From Candidatus Stahliibacteriota bacterium (lineage in GTDB: Bacteria; Hydrothermota; Tepidihabitantia; SM23-42), in contig JAUVZL010000003.1 in NCBI GenBank assembly GCA_030602565.1, forward strand, positions 4,160 to 68,159: a stretch of DNA of 64,000 bases. Direction: 5' to 3'. Positions 41,735-48,110 of this stretch are shown piece by piece (the first letter of the stretch is position 1; each line of letters begins with the position of its first letter). The notes beneath the pieces were generated by a model. It saw only the letters and a program-made list of their open reading frames with translations, did no database searches and was not told the origin of the DNA. The position numbers and the translations under genes were made by a program.

Positions 41735-41773
41735 TTTTCTAGCAACACTCTATAGTACGACAACGAGGGGACT

Positions 41774-41829
41774 CCCCCTCACCCTTACCCTCTCCCCCTA
41801 TAAGGGGGAGAGGAAAAAGGAGAGGGGGT
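41774..41829. repeat. GA/CT-rich hairpin repeat, copy 5
   Basis: CCCCTCACCCTTACCCTCTCCCCC-tata-AGGGGGAGAGGAAAAAGGAGAGGGGG. Confidence 0.75.
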
Positions 41830-42042
41830 GAATGGAGATCGCAATGACAAGAAAGAGTATATCGTGATAACACAGGAGAGAATATTTCATGATGACCAAC
41901 TTTTTTTGTCATTGCGAGGTCGCTGAAAGCGGTCGCGGCAATCTCACAAATTATTATTGAGATTGCTTCGTCACTTCGTTTCTCGCAATGACAGAAAGGG
42001 GAAAATTCCTCGCAATGCTTTATCATTATTTGCACACCACAA

Positions 42043-42399
42043 CTAGTCATCGAGCGTGGTATCCGTTATCCTGCGTTTTTTGAATATAAAATTATTCTCA
42101 ACTGGGTCATAGATCTTGCCGTTCTTTATGCCGGAGTAATAGGTGTTAAAATGCTCTACAGCCCAGGGGTTGCAGCGCATAAGCCGATCAACTGCCATTA
42201 ACGATCCGCAGATGACACCATATTTTTTTAACGCTTTTTTACTGAATCTTGAGCATGATGGCGTGAAATTGCAGACATCACCCTGGGTTGGTGCCACAAC
42301 TTTTTGATGGATAGTAATGCCTGTATTAATCACTATTTTCAGTGGGTTGGTTTCTCTGGGGGGTTGCATGAGGAGTAATGCACAAAATAAAATATGCAT
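42043..42399 (-). CDS. yidD: Membrane protein insertion efficiency factor YidD
   Basis: NFTPSCSRFSKKALKKYGVICGSLMAVDRLMRCNPW matches the YidD signature. Confidence 0.8.
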   Translation of the reverse strand: MHILFCALLLMQPPRETNPLKIVINTGITIHQKVVAPTQGDVCNFTPSCSRFSKKALKKYGVICGSLMAVDRLMRCNPWAVEHFNTYYSGIKNGKIYDPVENNFIFKKRRITDTTLDD

Positions 42400-42453
42400 A
42401 TAGTATTTTAAGCATTTATTTTAGAAAATCAAGTAGCCTGCAACCAAGGACTT

Positions 42454-42508
42454 CCCCTCACCCTTACCCTCTCCCCCTTACAGGGGGAGAGGAAAAAGGA
42501 GAGGGGGT
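42454..42508. repeat. GA/CT-rich hairpin repeat, copy 6
   Basis: CCCCTCACCCTTACCCTCTCCCCC-ttac-AGGGGGAGAGGAAAAAGGAGAGGGGG. Confidence 0.75.
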
Positions 42509-42550
42509 ATTTGTAGCTTGATTTTTTCGCAGGATTCAATATGCTAAGAT

Positions 42551-43219: not shown

Positions 43220-43369
43220 GTAATTTATTTTCTTGATCTGATTTATATTATCGTGGCTAAACAAGGGTATTTTGGCTTCAAGGTGAATAGAAAAGATTAT
43301 TTCAACTGGTCAAAGGAGGATTTAATCCAAAGGCAATGCATAAACGATAAAACCGAAGGATTAACCTTC

Positions 43370-43397
43370 TTGACATAAATCATGAGAAAGATATAGT
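43370..43397 (+). promoter_or_regulatory. Promoter TTGACA-16 nt-TATAGT ahead of the AlbA_2 fragment and fic
   Basis: Consensus hexamers followed by a GGAGG RBS and an ATG at 43426. Confidence 0.5.
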
Positions 43398-43425
43398 TCA
43401 TACATGGAGGTAGTGAAATAAGTGC

Positions 43426-43626
43426 ATGAAAAAATTGACTGAATCAGAAGTAGTCGAATTAAAACCAAGTTTATCACAGGCTGATAGGATTGTGGAGACG
43501 GTGGCGGCGATGGCGAACAGAAATAAGGGTGTTTATTGTTTCTGTCTACAGAACTTGACAAGACGTCTATTTCTGTTTATAATGAAAAACAGAAATAGCG
43601 AAGTGCCTTATTTCTGTTTCAAATAG
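43426..43626 (+). pseudogene. 5-prime fragment of a COG2865-type gene (AlbA_2/Schlafen N-terminus, about 44 aa), truncated
   Basis: ESEVVELKPSLSQADRIVETVAAMANRNKG matches the AlbA_2 start; the remainder of the ORF is unrelated and runs into the palindrome. Confidence 0.55.
43567..43626. promoter_or_regulatory. Perfect 12-bp inverted repeat (CTATTTCTGTTT-ataatgaa-AAACAGAAATAG) plus a third half-site, 13 nt ahead of the fic RBS
   Basis: AT-rich palindrome without a GC stem or T-tract; reads as an operator rather than a terminator. Confidence 0.45.
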
Positions 43627-43638
43627 AGGAGGCTCGAA

Positions 43639-44820
43639 ATGCGCAGTGGCTGGTGGCTTAAACAACTTTCCGGTGAATTGGGATATCAAGCATTTGTGCC
43701 TAATAAGTTGCCCTATGAAAGCACACCACAAATTGATGAGCTTATTCTGGATCTGCTTTCCGAGGCAAGCATATTATTGGGACGCCTTGATGGTATTACT
43801 GAACTCTTACCTGACCCAAATTTTTTTATCTTAATGTATATAAAGAAAGAAGCAACATCTTCAGCACAAATAGAGGGAACACAGGCTACCTTTGCTGATT
43901 TGTTAAAGCATGAAGCAAAAATTAAGGATCCAAAGATTCCAGATGATGTTAAGGAAATTGTTAATTATATAAATGCAATGAATTATGGTGTAAGAAGATT
44001 GGAAACACTGCCATTGTCACTACGACTTATTAGAGAAATACATAAGATTCTTCTAAAAGATGTCAGAGGACAAGAGCGATATCCTGGCGAATTCAGAAAA
44101 TCACAAAATTGGGTTGGAGGTAGGACAATAAATCTCGCGACCTATGTTCCACCACCTGCCCATGAATTACCGGGACTTCTTGATAATTTCGAGAAATTCT
44201 TGCATCTAAAGACGAAGATGCCAATTCTCATTAAAACTGCTTTAACTCATGCACAGTTTGAGCTCATTCATCCTTTTTTGGATGGAAATGGCAGGACTGG
44301 AAGACTTCTTATAACTTTTTATCTATACCATGAGAAAAAATTAAACAGACCTCTGCTTTATCTTTCAGATTATTTTCATAGATACAGACAGGAATATTAT
44401 GATCATTTGAATGCTATTTCCAAACGCGACGATATTGAAGGCTGGATAAAATATTTTTTGGATGGCGTCATCACTGTCTCCAAGGATGCTATAATTCTCG
44501 CTCAAAAAATAATCAATCTGAGAAAAGAAGACGAGAAAAAAATAATGACCTCAGGGAAAGCGGCGAAAAGCGGAATTAAACTCTTAGATTATCTATACAC
44601 AAACCCGATTGTAACAGGAAATCTCACTGAGGAAATTACCGGTTTATCTCCCTCTAATGCAAGAAATTTGATAAACAAATTTATTAAGATGGCTATTTTA
44701 AGACAAATGGATAAAAGACAGCGGGGAAAACGGTTTGTCTATGAACGATATATGGCATTATTTTCTGATGAATCACAGAATTCTAGCGAGAGGTTAATCA
44801 GAAAACAGAAAGAAGAATGA
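43639..44820 (+). CDS. fic: Fic-family protein (class II, with inhibitory S-x-x-x-E-G helix and C-terminal wHTH)
   Basis: HPFLDGNGRTGR active-site motif; SSAQIEG inhibitory motif; 393 aa. Confidence 0.85.
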   Translation: MRSGWWLKQLSGELGYQAFVPNKLPYESTPQIDELILDLLSEASILLGRLDGITELLPDPNFFILMYIKKEATSSAQIEGTQATFADLLKHEAKIKDPKIPDDVKEIVNYINAMNYGVRRLETLPLSLRLIREIHKILLKDVRGQERYPGEFRKSQNWVGGRTINLATYVPPPAHELPGLLDNFEKFLHLKTKMPILIKTALTHAQFELIHPFLDGNGRTGRLLITFYLYHEKKLNRPLLYLSDYFHRYRQEYYDHLNAISKRDDIEGWIKYFLDGVITVSKDAIILAQKIINLRKEDEKKIMTSGKAAKSGIKLLDYLYTNPIVTGNLTEEITGLSPSNARNLINKFIKMAILRQMDKRQRGKRFVYERYMALFSDESQNSSERLIRKQKEE

Positions 44821-45233
44821 TAATGATGCTTGAACGTCAGTCAAGATCTTTTAATCCACTGATAGCAAAGGCTTTTTTCTGGATAAAATATATCGAGGAA
44901 GTCGGCACCGGGACAAATAAGATAATTGAGTGGTGTAAGGATTGGGGCATTGCGGAACCGGATTTTGAGTGTGCAGGGTCAAGCATTGTGATTACAATTA
45001 GAAAATCCAAACTGACAGAAGAATATTTAACGAATCTGGGCTTAAATGAACGAGAATTGGAAATTATTGAGCAAATAAAAGCAAATAAAAAGACGACAAG
45101 TGGTGAGATTCAAAAATTGTTTAATGTAAGGAGAAAAGCAGCAAATAGTTATCTAAAAAGATTGATTGATTTGAAACTTATTAAGAGGATGGGAACAGGC
45201 AAGGCGGTTTACTATGTTCTCACGGCTAAATAG
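44817..45233 (+). pseudogene. 3-prime fragment of a COG2865-type gene (end of HATPase_c_4 plus wHTH), overlapping the fic stop by 4 nt
   Basis: NPLIAKAFFWIKYIEEVGTGTNKII is the conserved HATPase_c_4 tail; C-terminal wHTH; may still be expressed as a 138-aa protein. Confidence 0.5.
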
Positions 45234-45527
45234 TTTTCACAGTCTTGCGTTTCCCTTGCGTTTCCTTTGCGTCAAATATGCGTCAATTTTGTATCAGATT
45301 TTGCGGTGCATATACGGGGAATCTACGACATATGCGTACGATTGACGGACAATTATGCATTATAGGAATAACCATGCTTGAGCGGCAGACTTTTCAGAAT
45401 AAAGATTTGGTTCTTAAAGTATCACCAAATTATAGCCCAAAGAAATTTGACCCGAATAATAAGGAGAAAATTAGTAAAAAAGATTATAGCAATTGGTCAG
45501 ATTTAGAATAATGAAAAATGAAAAGCG

Positions 45528-45832
45528 GTGTATGAGAAGTATAATAATGATAATGAAGGCAGAAATAAACAAGGGCTGGATGGGGGTGAAGAACAAATTT
45601 GGTGACGGCATTTATAAGATGATATGTTATAAGATTCTGGATTCCCGCCTCCGCGGGAATGACAATGTCGGAAATGAACACGGGAATGAACCTGTACAAC
45701 TTCGTTTTACGGGGCAGGCATAAGGTGTTAGGGAATGACCCGGGATAACTTCGTTTTACGGGGCAGGCATAAGGTGCCAGGGAATGACAGTCCTCCCTTT
45801 TCCGTCATTCCTGCGAAAGCAGGAATCTAAAG
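45528..45832. repeat. Repeat segment A: about-120-bp unit, palindrome CTGGATTCCCGC-ctc-GCGGGAATGAC, two tandem 49-bp units (ACTTCGTTTTACGGGGCAGGCATAAGGTGCCAGGGAATGAC) and palindrome GTCATTCCTGC-gaaa-GCAGGAAT
   Basis: Duplicated at 47815-48110 with about 95% identity. Confidence 0.75.
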
Positions 45833-45844
45833 AATAGATAGTAG

Positions 45845-46132
45845 ATGACAAAATTTTATGTCTACATTTTAGCCAATAAGAGAAATGGAACCTTGTACAT
45901 CGGCGTAACCAATAATTTGATTAAAAGAGTATATGAGCACAAAAATAATTTAGTTAAAGGCTTTACTCAAAAATATAATGTCCATAAATTGGTATGTTAT
46001 GAAGTATTTGATAATGCGTACGATGCCATTACAAGAGAAAAACGGATAAAAAAGTGGAAAAGACAATGGAAAGTAGCGTTGATCGAAAAGGAGAATCCTA
46101 ATTGGGAAGACTTATTTGAGACACTATTGTAA
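45845..46132 (+). CDS. GIY-YIG nuclease-family protein (COG2827-like), 95 aa
   Basis: FYVYILANKRNGTLYIGVTNNLIKRVYEHK motif. Confidence 0.8.
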   Translation: MTKFYVYILANKRNGTLYIGVTNNLIKRVYEHKNNLVKGFTQKYNVHKLVCYEVFDNAYDAITREKRIKKWKRQWKVALIEKENPNWEDLFETLL

Positions 46133-46407
46133 GGATCCTGGATTCCTGCTTTCGCAGGAATGACAAGGAGGAAAAGACAGGAATGCTAAGGAGGGCAGGA
46201 ATGACCCCGTACAACTTCGTTTTACGGGGCAGGCATAAGGTGCCAGAGAATGACAAGTAGATAAACCAATGATTGATAATTATTTCGCTATTTCAACAAT
46301 CCTTTTTTCCTAAAGCAGTGTAAAATAGGTAATGTCGTATGCAGTAGTTCAATTACCATTGATTAGAAAGTGGGGCATAACATAATGTAAGAAAATAAAA
46401 CATCATA

Positions 46408-46452: not shown

Positions 46453-47241
46453 ATGTCTAAAGTTGGTGAAAGAATAAAGAAATTACGAAAAACTGCCGGT
46501 TTTACCCAGGAAAGACTTGCTAAATTACTGGGTATTTCAAGGCCCGCAATTTCGCAGATTGAAAATAGCGAACGAAAAATCTGTGCTGAGGAATTGCAGA
46601 AATTGGCAGAGATTTTTAATGTCTCGGTTGATAGTTTGCTAAATCCTGAGAAAGAGCCAGCAGTGATTATAAGAGAGAACCGAGCAAATTATAAACCAAG
46701 AGTGGCTAAACAACGAATTAGAGTCAATGTACCTCAGAAGAACCTTGAAAAATTCAAGGAAGTTTTTCTCTATATTCTCTCTAAGGTAGGTTCAAAACCG
46801 AATGTTGGCGAAACCGTAATTTACAAGCTACTCTATTTTCTTGATTTCGATTATTATGAAAAATATGAAGAGCAGCTAATTGGTGCAACCTATATCAAAA
46901 ATCGCCACGGTCCTACGCCTTTAGAATTCAAGAAGATAGTTGAAAAGATGATAAAAGAAAAAGAGATTGAAAAGGTTGATAGCAAATATTTTGAATATCC
47001 TCAGACAAAATACTTACCACTGCGAAAACCTGATTTTTTGAAGTTGAAAGCAACTGAAATTGAGGTCGTTGATGAAGTTCTGAATAAGCTTTCGGATATG
47101 AACGCAAATCAGATAAGCGAATATTCTCATAATGATGTGCCCTGGTTAACAACCGGAGAAAATAAAGTCATTGAATATGAATCCGTGTTCTATAGAACAC
47201 CGCTTTATTCAGTAAGAGAGTATAGTGGAAATATTCAATGA
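46453..47241 (+). CDS. HTH_XRE plus Panacea (DUF4065)-domain antitoxin, PanA-type
   Basis: N-terminal LRKTAGFTQERLAKLLGISRPAISQIEN HTH; C-terminal KLLYFLDFDYYEKYEEQLIGATYIKNRHGPTP Panacea/SocA-like core. Confidence 0.65.
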   Translation: MSKVGERIKKLRKTAGFTQERLAKLLGISRPAISQIENSERKICAEELQKLAEIFNVSVDSLLNPEKEPAVIIRENRANYKPRVAKQRIRVNVPQKNLEKFKEVFLYILSKVGSKPNVGETVIYKLLYFLDFDYYEKYEEQLIGATYIKNRHGPTPLEFKKIVEKMIKEKEIEKVDSKYFEYPQTKYLPLRKPDFLKLKATEIEVVDEVLNKLSDMNANQISEYSHNDVPWLTTGENKVIEYESVFYRTPLYSVREYSGNIQ

Positions 47242-47596
47242 GATATTCATACTTCCGGAATTTGCGAAAGATTTAAAGCACCTTCTTAAAAGATTTGGAA
47301 CTCTTGAAGACGACCTGAAAATATTCATTGAAAAAGAATTGTATCTATACCATAAATTAAAAATAGATAACAAAGGCGTATTTCGAATTGAAGGTTTAGG
47401 ATATGAAAAATTTAAAATCTATAAAGCAAAGAAATTCGCCTGCCGTTCCCTCCGCGGTAAGGGCGTACATTCGGGTATCCGAGTAATATATTCGTACGAT
47501 GAGGAATCAGATAAAGTTGAGCTAATTGAAATCTATTATAAAGGTGACAAGAAAATTGAGGACCGGAACCGGATACACAAACACTATGAAAAATGA
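47225..47596 (+). CDS. RelE/ParE-superfamily toxin-like protein
   Basis: GIRVIYSYDEESDKVELIEIYYKGDKK matches the RelE/ParE C-terminal beta-sheet motif; 17-nt overlap with the antitoxin gene. Confidence 0.6.
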   Translation: MEIFNEIFILPEFAKDLKHLLKRFGTLEDDLKIFIEKELYLYHKLKIDNKGVFRIEGLGYEKFKIYKAKKFACRSLRGKGVHSGIRVIYSYDEESDKVELIEIYYKGDKKIEDRNRIHKHYEK

Positions 47597-47814: not shown

Positions 47815-48110
47815 GTGTATGAGAAGTATAATAATGATAATGAAGGCAGAAATAAACAAGGGCTGGATAGGGGTGAAGAACAAATTTAGTGGCGGCATTT
47901 ATAAGATGATATGTTATAAGATCCTGGATTCCTGCTTTTGCAGGAATGACCCGGGATAACTTCGTTTTACGGGGTAGGCATAGGGTGCCAGGGAATGACC
48001 CGGGATAACTTCGTTTTACGGGGCAGGCATAGGGTGCCAGGGAATGACAAGTAAGATAAAGCAGTAAAAATTCAGCTGGATTCCCTGGTCAAGCCAGGGA
48101 ATGACAGTTT
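47815..48110. repeat. Repeat segment A-prime (second copy of segment A, plus palindrome variant CTGGATTCCCTGG-tcaag-CCAGGGAATGAC)
   Basis: Self-comparison with 45528-45832. Confidence 0.75.

Follow-up and report, generated by a model that had tools for sequence, protein, structure and literature searches.

A SoFic-type fic gene with its own promoter and putative operators interrupts a short COG2865-family gene in a Candidatus Stahliibacteriota bacterium

SoFic, a class II Fic protein of Shewanella oneidensis, is a single-gene anti-phage system that carries, in this order, an inhibitory S-x3-E-G helix, a Fic core of the form HPFxDGNGRxGR, and, at its C-terminus, a domain of the winged helix-turn-helix (wHTH) type. 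AMPylation activity, toxicity, and anti-phage protection have been described for SoFic/EcSofic (PMC12249575; bioRxiv 10.64898/2026.07.09.737422), and the SoFic dimer reportedly binds the 100 bp 5′ of its own start codon (bioRxiv 10.64898/2026.07.09.737422). In E. coli H397, a Sofic-type gene is directly followed by a small open reading frame (ORF) for the 47-amino-acid (aa) antitoxin AS1 (PMC12249575). CccR of Yersinia pseudotuberculosis is both a Fic toxin and a transcription factor; it has a C-terminal helix-turn-helix, forms a dimer, is secreted by a type VI secretion system, and represses its own gene via inverted repeats (palindromes) at the −35 and −10 boxes, its operator being one 10-bp repeat pair, 26 bp apart (PMC9755527). 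Here, we analyze a stretch of 64,000 nucleotides (nt) from a Candidatus Stahliibacteriota bacterium (contig JAUVZL010000003.1, positions 4,160 to 68,159; hereafter the window), in which a SoFic-type fic gene interrupts a single gene of the COG2865 family. Proteins of this family combine an AlbA_2/Schlafen-like domain, HATPase_c_4, and a wHTH, and are typically 440-490 aa long. Both the insertion and its direction can be read from alleles with and without fic. The features of the locus are as follows:

43370-43397, forward strand: TTGACA-16-TATAGT, the promoter native to the short COG2865-family gene, with a scan score of 11/12
43426-43518, forward strand: N-terminal fragment of the interrupted 205-aa gene, made up of its codons 1-31 with the AlbA_2 start (...VAAMAN)
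43517-43545, no strand: putative operator O1, ACAGAAATA-N11-TgTTTCTGT, also the left end of the imported unit
43555-43583, forward strand: fic's own sigma-70 promoter, TTGACA-17-TATAAT (12/12 in the promoter scan), kept in L009, L013, and L014
43567-43619, no strand: palindrome and putative operator O2, the latter formed by ACAGAAATA (43589-97), N11, and TATTTCTGT (43609-17)
43639-44820, forward strand: fic, 393 aa, SoFic-type class II Fic protein, a predicted AMP-transferase
44783-44840, forward strand: right junction, about 37 nt of filler followed by a copy of a small-gene start, ATAATGATGCTTGAACGTCAG (44820-40)
44817-45233, forward strand: 138-aa ORF, overlapping the fic stop by 4 nt (ATGA)
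44841-45233, forward strand: C-terminal fragment, last two thirds of HATPase_c_4 plus wHTH, read within the 138-aa ORF

An earlier sequence-only reading of this DNA had proposed that fic sits between two pieces of one COG2865-family gene. The ORFs, the palindrome with its third half-site, the upstream promoter, and the 4-nt overlap on which it drew are all present where it placed them; overlooked were the 12/12 promoter at 43555-43583 and the half-site pair at 43517-43545. The proposal itself was borne out by an allele without fic. The 138-aa protein falls into one 90%-identity cluster with P0157, a protein of 205 aa (MRELTESEVVEFKSSLSQTDRIVETVAAMAN-ALAHRDY...KEKHESKP-FNPLIAKAFFW...) that unites the two window fragments within one ORF. 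Its gene lies on contigs L017 and L018 at the same chromosomal site, 3′ of the same Rce1-like gene (93.6% nt identity to that of the window), and supplies the uninterrupted, fic-free relative for which the sequence-only reading had suggested a comparison. By tblastn, aa 1-31 of P0157 match window positions 43426-43518 (84% identity, E = 4e-11) and aa 74-205 match 44835-45230 (94.7% identity). With blastn, the boundaries are as follows: on the left, the match to L006 and L017 stops at 43517, and on the right, the match to L017, L018, and L006 begins at 44841.

We refer to the arrangement with fic as the filled allele (window, L001, L008, L019, L100, and L180-184) and to the one without fic as the empty allele (L017 and L018). 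That a chimeric contig could have produced the filled allele deserves a thought, given metagenome assemblies throughout and a contig, L006, that starts exactly at the N-terminal fragment. It can practically be dismissed, as the filled arrangement, with the same junctions, occurs in at least 10 independently assembled contigs (NCBI, JGI, Logan) and the empty allele in two independent assemblies from two metagenomes.

Between the two alleles, window positions 43518-44840 (1323 nt) take the place of 133 nt of the empty allele (L017 1435-1567), corresponding to about 44 codons. These 133 nt, which the filled allele lacks, code for conserved HATPase_c_4 residues that can be aligned to full-length relatives, and the event was therefore an insertion with replacement rather than an excision. 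In P0157, HATPase_c_4 is matched over profile positions 3-89 (E = 1.5e-22). The match in the 138-aa ORF exceeds the gathering score (E = 1.3e-9) and is limited to positions 32-89 of the 89.

The interrupted gene was already short before fic arrived. In a search of 1.8 billion representative proteins, full-length relatives measured 440-490 aa, and aa 28-203 of P0157 aligned to roughly their residues 270-457. Compared with the 471-aa relative P0171 (59% identity), the short allele joins about N39 to about A286, so that about 246 aa, i.e. most of AlbA_2 and the whole middle region, are gone even from the empty allele. The 205-aa form thus consists of a 31-aa AlbA_2 start, HATPase_c_4, and wHTH, and in alignments with full-length COG2865-family proteins, both it and the window fragments correspond to the far N-terminal end and the final ~175 aa. 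In the window, the gene is also split and lacks 44 HATPase_c_4 codons, the displaced segment being equivalent to aa 286-331 of P0171; the N-terminal fragment aligns to P0171 within aa 11-43 (correspondence aa 11-39). The sequence-only reading had ascribed a loss of about 200 aa to fic, which does not hold for an uninterrupted allele of only 205 aa from which 133 nt were displaced. A PDB sequence search with the HATPase_c_4 part returned nothing similar.

Short HATPase_c_4 plus wHTH proteins were common among the matches, at least some of them being what is left of genes that have decayed. On L002 (4802-5561), for example, sequence matching aa 206-271 of full-length relatives lies, in a different frame, ahead of the 188-aa "ATP-binding protein" P0005, which marks this short form as the product of a frameshift in a longer gene.

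Upstream of fic, the promoter and ribosome-binding site (RBS) of the 66-aa ORF (43426-43626) had been described as intact. The promoter is there, and its hexamers are unchanged in all alleles that cover the site (L001, L008, L019, L017, and L018), with one substitution in the spacer. The GGAGGT motif taken as RBS (43405-43410) lies rather far from the ATG, at 15 nt. Only 31 aa of this ORF, not 44, are genuine according to the tblastn and blastn boundaries; the codons beyond aa 31 are read-through of fic regulatory DNA. An AlbA_2 start is nevertheless recognizable. Pfam SLFN_AlbA_2 matches aa 6-36 with E = 8e-4, short of the gathering score, the profile being covered over positions 1-34 of 118; the domain is equally incomplete in P0157 (positions 1-30 of 118). 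The AlbA_2/Schlafen-like domain of the family is accordingly represented in the window by a partial, sub-threshold match, and of the two fragments only the HATPase_c_4 part is placed in its family with a score above the gathering threshold.

The imported unit comprises about 1.26 kb of foreign DNA and consists of the promoter, the operators, and fic. The closest fic homologues outside the locus are found on L009/L101 (84% aa identity) and L013-16 (80% aa identity). Nucleotide homology to these fic loci extends only from 43516 or 43536 to 44765 or 44782, and the neighboring genes are unrelated. The left end coincides with O1, which was delimited by this start of homology, by the repeats D1, I1, and I18, and by its conservation in alignment A2. 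The right junction is more complex. Its filler holds AAACAGAAAGAAG (44803-15), which resembles a half-site, and the adjoining copy of the small-gene start (44820-40) forms direct repeat D5 with 45368-88 and provides the start codon of the 138-aa ORF. Because homologues with 80-84% aa identity keep the 12/12 promoter and the operators in unrelated contexts, the idea that fic took over the host promoter must be given up, even though that promoter persists.

No recombinase or transposase was found in the unit; fic is the only ORF of more than 62 aa that lies wholly within 43518-44840. The unit thus lacks the marks of an autonomous mobile element, namely a recombinase or transposase of its own and terminal repeats or att sites; the two copies of the half-site-like direct repeat D6, one at each end (43514-28 and 44803-17), share only about 76% identity. 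Likewise, a search of viral contigs and plasmids for a carrier of the cassette yielded no close relative.

The filled allele has spread recently between diverged lineages. Synonymous divergence (dS) between window and L001 is 0.008 for fic and 0.287 for the Rce1-like gene; between window and L180, the values are 0.067 and 1.05, respectively. The cassette is thus 15-35 times less diverged than the host backbone, which indicates recent spread, and since all copies have the same complex junctions, a single origin of the filled allele is indicated. A comparison of L001 (filled) with L017 (empty) illustrates the process. Their Rce1-like genes are identical (dS = 0) and identity remains at about 99% up to the junction; L001 amounts to the background of L017 into which a tract, roughly L001 1570-3108, was imported, and this tract includes about 170 nt of the adjoining C-terminal fragment. 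The flanking fragments are mosaic: the N-terminal fragment is L006-like in the window and L017-like in L001, and L001 has a patch of the L006/L007 type at 44970-45010. Apparently, the allele spread by homologous recombination through the flanking fragments. It offers a clean natural case of defence-gene acquisition, with filled and empty alleles in the same strain background and junctions resolved to within a few nt.

The same data bear on a different account, in which the fic unit is a site-specific (homing) element that has entered short COG2865-family genes at this codon separately in every lineage. Such an element would explain identical junctions in backbones whose Rce1-like genes differ by a dS of 0.29 to 1.05, the drop of window/L001 identity within about 10-30 nt of both junctions, and the half-site-like repeats at both ends. 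We regard it as very improbable, because the unit encodes no recombinase or nuclease beside its one substantial ORF, the right junction with its filler and copied small-gene start points to a single event, the tract imported into L001 took flanking gene sequence along, the flanks are mosaic through recombination, and related fic units elsewhere lie outside COG2865-family genes.

The encoded Fic protein was assigned to the SoFic family by several lines of evidence. Pfam recognizes Fic_N (E = 6e-26) and Fic (E = 3e-22), the PADLOC SoFic model matches over positions 5-359 of 361 (E = 2e-119), and SoFic PDB chains align to aa 38-380 (E about 1e-31). The domain order is that of SoFic. The active-site motif HPFLDGNGRTGR (aa 211-222) conforms to HxFx(D/E)GNGRxxR, with H211, P212, F213, D215, G216, N217, G218, R219, G221, and R222 invariant across 20 Fic homologues. 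Within the Fic_N match, the segment S75-A-Q-I-E79-G80 has the form [ST]xxxE[GN] of an inhibitory motif and lines up with SoFic's inhibitory segment; all homologues share E79 and G80. A C-terminal SoFic-like winged helix is supported by the PDB-chain and PADLOC alignments, while Pfam SoFic-like_C gave no separate match. Similarity to SoFic itself is modest: the NCBIfam equivalog model NF046030 scored 160.9 bits against a cut-off of 550. By its sequence, the window protein is therefore a member of the SoFic family and not an orthologue of SoFic. It also differs from SoFic in lying inside another gene and in its tail, as the last ~16-18 aa (about aa 376-393, ...SDESQNSSERLIRKQKEE) are read-through into junction DNA; typical homologues measure 374-384 aa and cover 95-96% of the query.

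Damaged copies of fic were also observed. On L019 (fic at 1213-1975), a deletion of 419 nt between AAAAATTAA repeats has removed the catalytic motif from the gene, and the Fic variant P0164 has the motif HPFLDDNGR (G to D). Together, these cases of repeated fic inactivation fit a cost of carrying a toxin.

The regulatory region of fic contains five 9-bp half-sites (ACAGAAATA/TATTTCTGT), arranged as two N11 pairs 72 bp apart plus one half-site, TATTTCTGT at 43568-43576, in the promoter spacer. The perfect 12-bp palindrome noted in the sequence-only reading (43567-78/43587-98) and its third half-site (43609-19; inverted repeats I6 and I9) belong to this array, with O2 lying between the −10 box and the RBS GAGGAGG (43626-32). 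Such clustering greatly exceeds chance: all four exact matches to ACAGAAATA in the 64-kb window fall inside 43517-43617 (101 nt), with 0.85 expected for the entire window.

A common layout was found in the 150 nt 5′ of each fic in L102-L135, L160, L173, and L120, and also in L180 (2047-2199): a half-site pair lies 5′ of the −35 box, a single half-site occupies the promoter spacer, and an inverted pair stands between −10 box and RBS. It recurs upstream of metagenomic Fic homologues with 53-72% identity, and fic is the sole gene that these loci have in common. The half-sites as such are lineage-specific:

Window group (at least 80% identity): TATTTCTGT / ACAGAAATA
Homologues of about 60% identity: TTATCTACGATT / AATCGTAGATAA
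L160: TTAATTACGATT / AATCGTAATTAA
L120: CGTTCTGTTT / AAACAGAACG
Types among homologues with 53-72% identity and in the tandem paralogue Fic-A: CGTAGATAA, CGTAATTAA, ACAGAACG, and GTTGACA

The exact motif of the window is limited to the group with at least 80% identity, and wider sharing concerns the layout only. In line with this, the window half-site was not enriched upstream of 78 Fic homologues with 41-58% identity on genome contigs (seven loci versus four in the background). On L180, two fic paralogues stand in tandem and differ in their operators; the paralogue Fic-A, 47% identical to the window Fic, has half-sites of the GTTGACA type. For the groups that allowed a comparison of the Fic C-terminus, the half-sites co-vary with the recognition helix of the wHTH:

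Helix SPSNARN, GLSPSNARNLINKF: half-site ACAGAAATA
Helix SKSNAYN, KLSKSNAYNLQKKL: half-site ACAGAACG
Helix KNPNALA, GLKNPNALALINKL: half-site CGTAGATAA

The sequence-only reading had left open whether the 138-aa protein binds the palindrome. Wherever fic occurs in other contexts, the half-sites accompany it, and they change together with its wHTH helix. Moreover, in L008 and L180-183 the wHTH of the 138-aa ORF has been exchanged for an unrelated one next to a nearly unchanged operator (two substitutions relative to the window, at the imperfect upstream half-site). For these reasons, the palindrome is assigned to Fic and interpreted as its putative autoregulatory operator, to which Fic would bind and thereby repress its own gene. 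Such regulation matches, by analogy, the published autoregulation of CccR and SoFic. The logic would be the same as in CccR, although the window has five 9-bp half-sites rather than one 10-bp pair and nothing suggests that its Fic is secreted. The conserved multi-half-site layout of the SoFic family, co-varying with the wHTH helix, is the most reusable result of this analysis and extends the findings on CccR and SoFic. The operator/helix pairs, including the tandem paralogues with their different operators, are concrete test cases.

Immediately downstream of fic, the 138-aa ORF is a composite. Its first codons, ATGATGCTTGAACGTCAG (MMLERQ), copy the start of a small gene that normally lies 3′ of COG2865-family genes, and the remainder is the C-terminal fragment, i.e. 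a truncated HATPase_c_4 followed by a wHTH. The latter gave sub-threshold matches to HTH_24, MarR_2, and TrmB (aa 71-135); AlphaFold2 predicts it as a helix-helix-helix-hairpin with a predicted local distance difference test (pLDDT) score of about 90, compared with <50 for residues 1-30. On L181, a 23-nt deletion at the junction frameshifts the ORF next to an intact fic. On L019, the ORF is absent and the small-gene copy of the junction continues directly into the small gene. An order of events with this form before the window type was considered as well; the simplest route from the window type to this form would be a deletion between the 21-nt repeats 44820-40 and 45368-88. The closest fic homologues elsewhere have no counterpart of the ORF. 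Taken together, the ORF is best read, from these sequence comparisons, as a chimeric, dispensable remnant that fic would not need, and the proposal that it is a separately translated partner of fic is not supported.

With a probability of roughly 0.8, the locus is explained by the insertion of a SoFic-type unit, equipped with its own promoter and operators and probably self-repressing, into a short gene, with the flanking ORFs as leftovers, a single origin, and recent spread by recombination. The unit replaced 133 bp of the 205-aa COG2865-family regulator gene in a variable slot beside the Rce1-like gene. The 66-aa ORF is 31 genuine codons plus operator read-through, and the 138-aa ORF a fortuitous fusion of a copied small-gene start with the C-terminal two thirds of the interrupted gene. 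Most likely, a class II, self-inhibited Fic dimer would repress its own transcription via half-sites that bracket the −35 and −10 boxes. Released Fic, e.g. upon phage infection, might AMPylate a host target such as EF-Tu and thereby stop growth. DNA binding and repression, the enzyme target, and the anti-phage role are all inferred. Viewed in this way, the element would be a self-repressing Fic toxin or defence gene of the SoFic/CccR type, and its arrival an ordinary insertion of a known kind of defence gene. The locus also holds a lesson for annotation: short "ATP-binding protein" or "RecG-like" ORFs next to defence genes need not be partners of these and can be what is left of an interrupted gene.

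Several points weigh against this interpretation. All comparisons rest on metagenome contigs. A host factor instead of Fic could conceivably bind the half-sites. On L001, the left recombination endpoint lies within about 40-170 nt of the junction, which is short for homologous recombination. The remaining points concern the 138-aa ORF: most filled alleles keep it intact and overlapping fic by 4 nt, its flank has a low dN/dS (0 to 0.17) with few nonsynonymous changes, and L019, the sole contig wholly without it, has an inactivated fic, which fits a protective role. Low dN/dS was considered as a sign of current selection on the ORF and set aside as uninformative, since the flanks diverged long before the insertion took place; the few nonsynonymous changes probably reflect history before the insertion.

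A rival reading takes fic and the translationally coupled 138-aa wHTH protein for a functional two-gene module, in which the latter was co-opted as a regulator or antitoxin of SoFic in the manner of AS1. Its coupling through the ATGA overlap, its intact state in the window, L001, L008, L180, L182, and L183, its confidently predicted wHTH fold, and the weak resemblance of this wHTH to the SoFic C-terminal domain (PADLOC positions 282-350, E = 2e-5) agree with such a module, as does the broken fic on L019, and AS1 provides a precedent for a downstream antitoxin (PMC12249575). AS1 shares the position directly after a Sofic-type gene, but is 47 aa long, as against a 138-aa gene remnant that is dispensable on L181 and not conserved beside close fic homologues. 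An ORF start copied from another gene, a predicted disordered stretch of 30 N-terminal residues before a truncated HATPase_c_4, and the exchange of the wHTH for an unrelated one beside essentially constant operators also argue against it. A functional two-gene module is hence unlikely, and a co-opted role for the ORF of whatever kind is doubtful.

A bolder version would make short COG2865-family genes the preferred landing pads of SoFic genes and the coupled wHTH tail a co-opted modulator (antitoxin or co-repressor). If this were true, the three ORFs would represent a two-component defence module at the very moment of its emergence; we consider it quite improbable. A COG2865-like gene lies within 3 kb of only about 4-5 of roughly 155 unrelated fic loci, and this co-occurrence fits shared residence in defence islands, not specific pairing. 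Another, independent case of the two families side by side is L047 (1258-4439; uncultured Atribacterota), where a short HATPase_c_4 plus wHTH ORF comes after a Fic homologue (48% identity) and is itself succeeded by a COG2865-family gene of full length.

The slot beside the Rce1-like gene is a hot spot and a recurrent landing place for fic genes. A second SoFic paralogue is present there in L008, L019, and L180-183; this 378-aa protein (47% identical) is encoded between the Rce1-like gene and the interrupted gene (L008:68-1204, L180:2197-3333, L019:2-811). Relatives have RadC, AbiEi_2, and HEPN_AbiU2 among the further neighbors of the slot, and the window has a Panacea-type antitoxin.

Fragments of the small "MLERQ" gene flank the interrupted gene on both sides and are also present at the fic junction:

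43253-43378, forward strand: 3′ part, a remnant ("MLERQ...KKDY.NW.KEDLI", reading ...KDYFNWSKEDLIQRQ...) in host DNA 5′ of the interrupted gene
45375-45511, forward strand: 5′ part, homologous to L006, L007, and L017, in the usual position after a COG2865-family gene

The upstream remnant was compared with the small ORF of L006 and forms direct repeat D3 with 45475-45499. Elsewhere, the gene (MLERQ/K..QNK..V.SPNY...KKDY.NW.KEDLI...; 115 aa in L006, 669-1016; L019:1981-2070) lies 3′ of COG2865-family genes in several contigs. It had no Pfam match, and the idea that it is an N-terminal fragment of a DNA methyltransferase was dropped, as Pfam gave no support.

At about 45500, the small gene is truncated by a short repeat resembling a miniature inverted-repeat transposable element (45497-45845), further copies of which lie at 47815-48049 and 46198-46255. 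The element also occurs, with 97% identity, at a different place on L001 (4120-4306), and its translations give spurious ORFs such as MRSIIMIMKAEINKGW.... Copies of it flank a 95-aa ORF (45845-46132) consisting of a stand-alone GIY-YIG nuclease domain (1.2e-17). Further downstream, 46453-47241 encodes an antitoxin-type protein with HTH_3 and SocA_Panacea domains (4.6e-19) and overlaps by 17 nt with a 123-aa ORF (47225-47596) that had no match in Pfam or PADLOC; 46453-47596 is thus a candidate Panacea toxin-antitoxin pair. Upstream of the locus, spurious ORFs of the PLPL.GGE.KGEG type at 41739-42050 and 42378-42539 correspond to further short G+C-rich repeats around a YidD-like gene (42043-42399).

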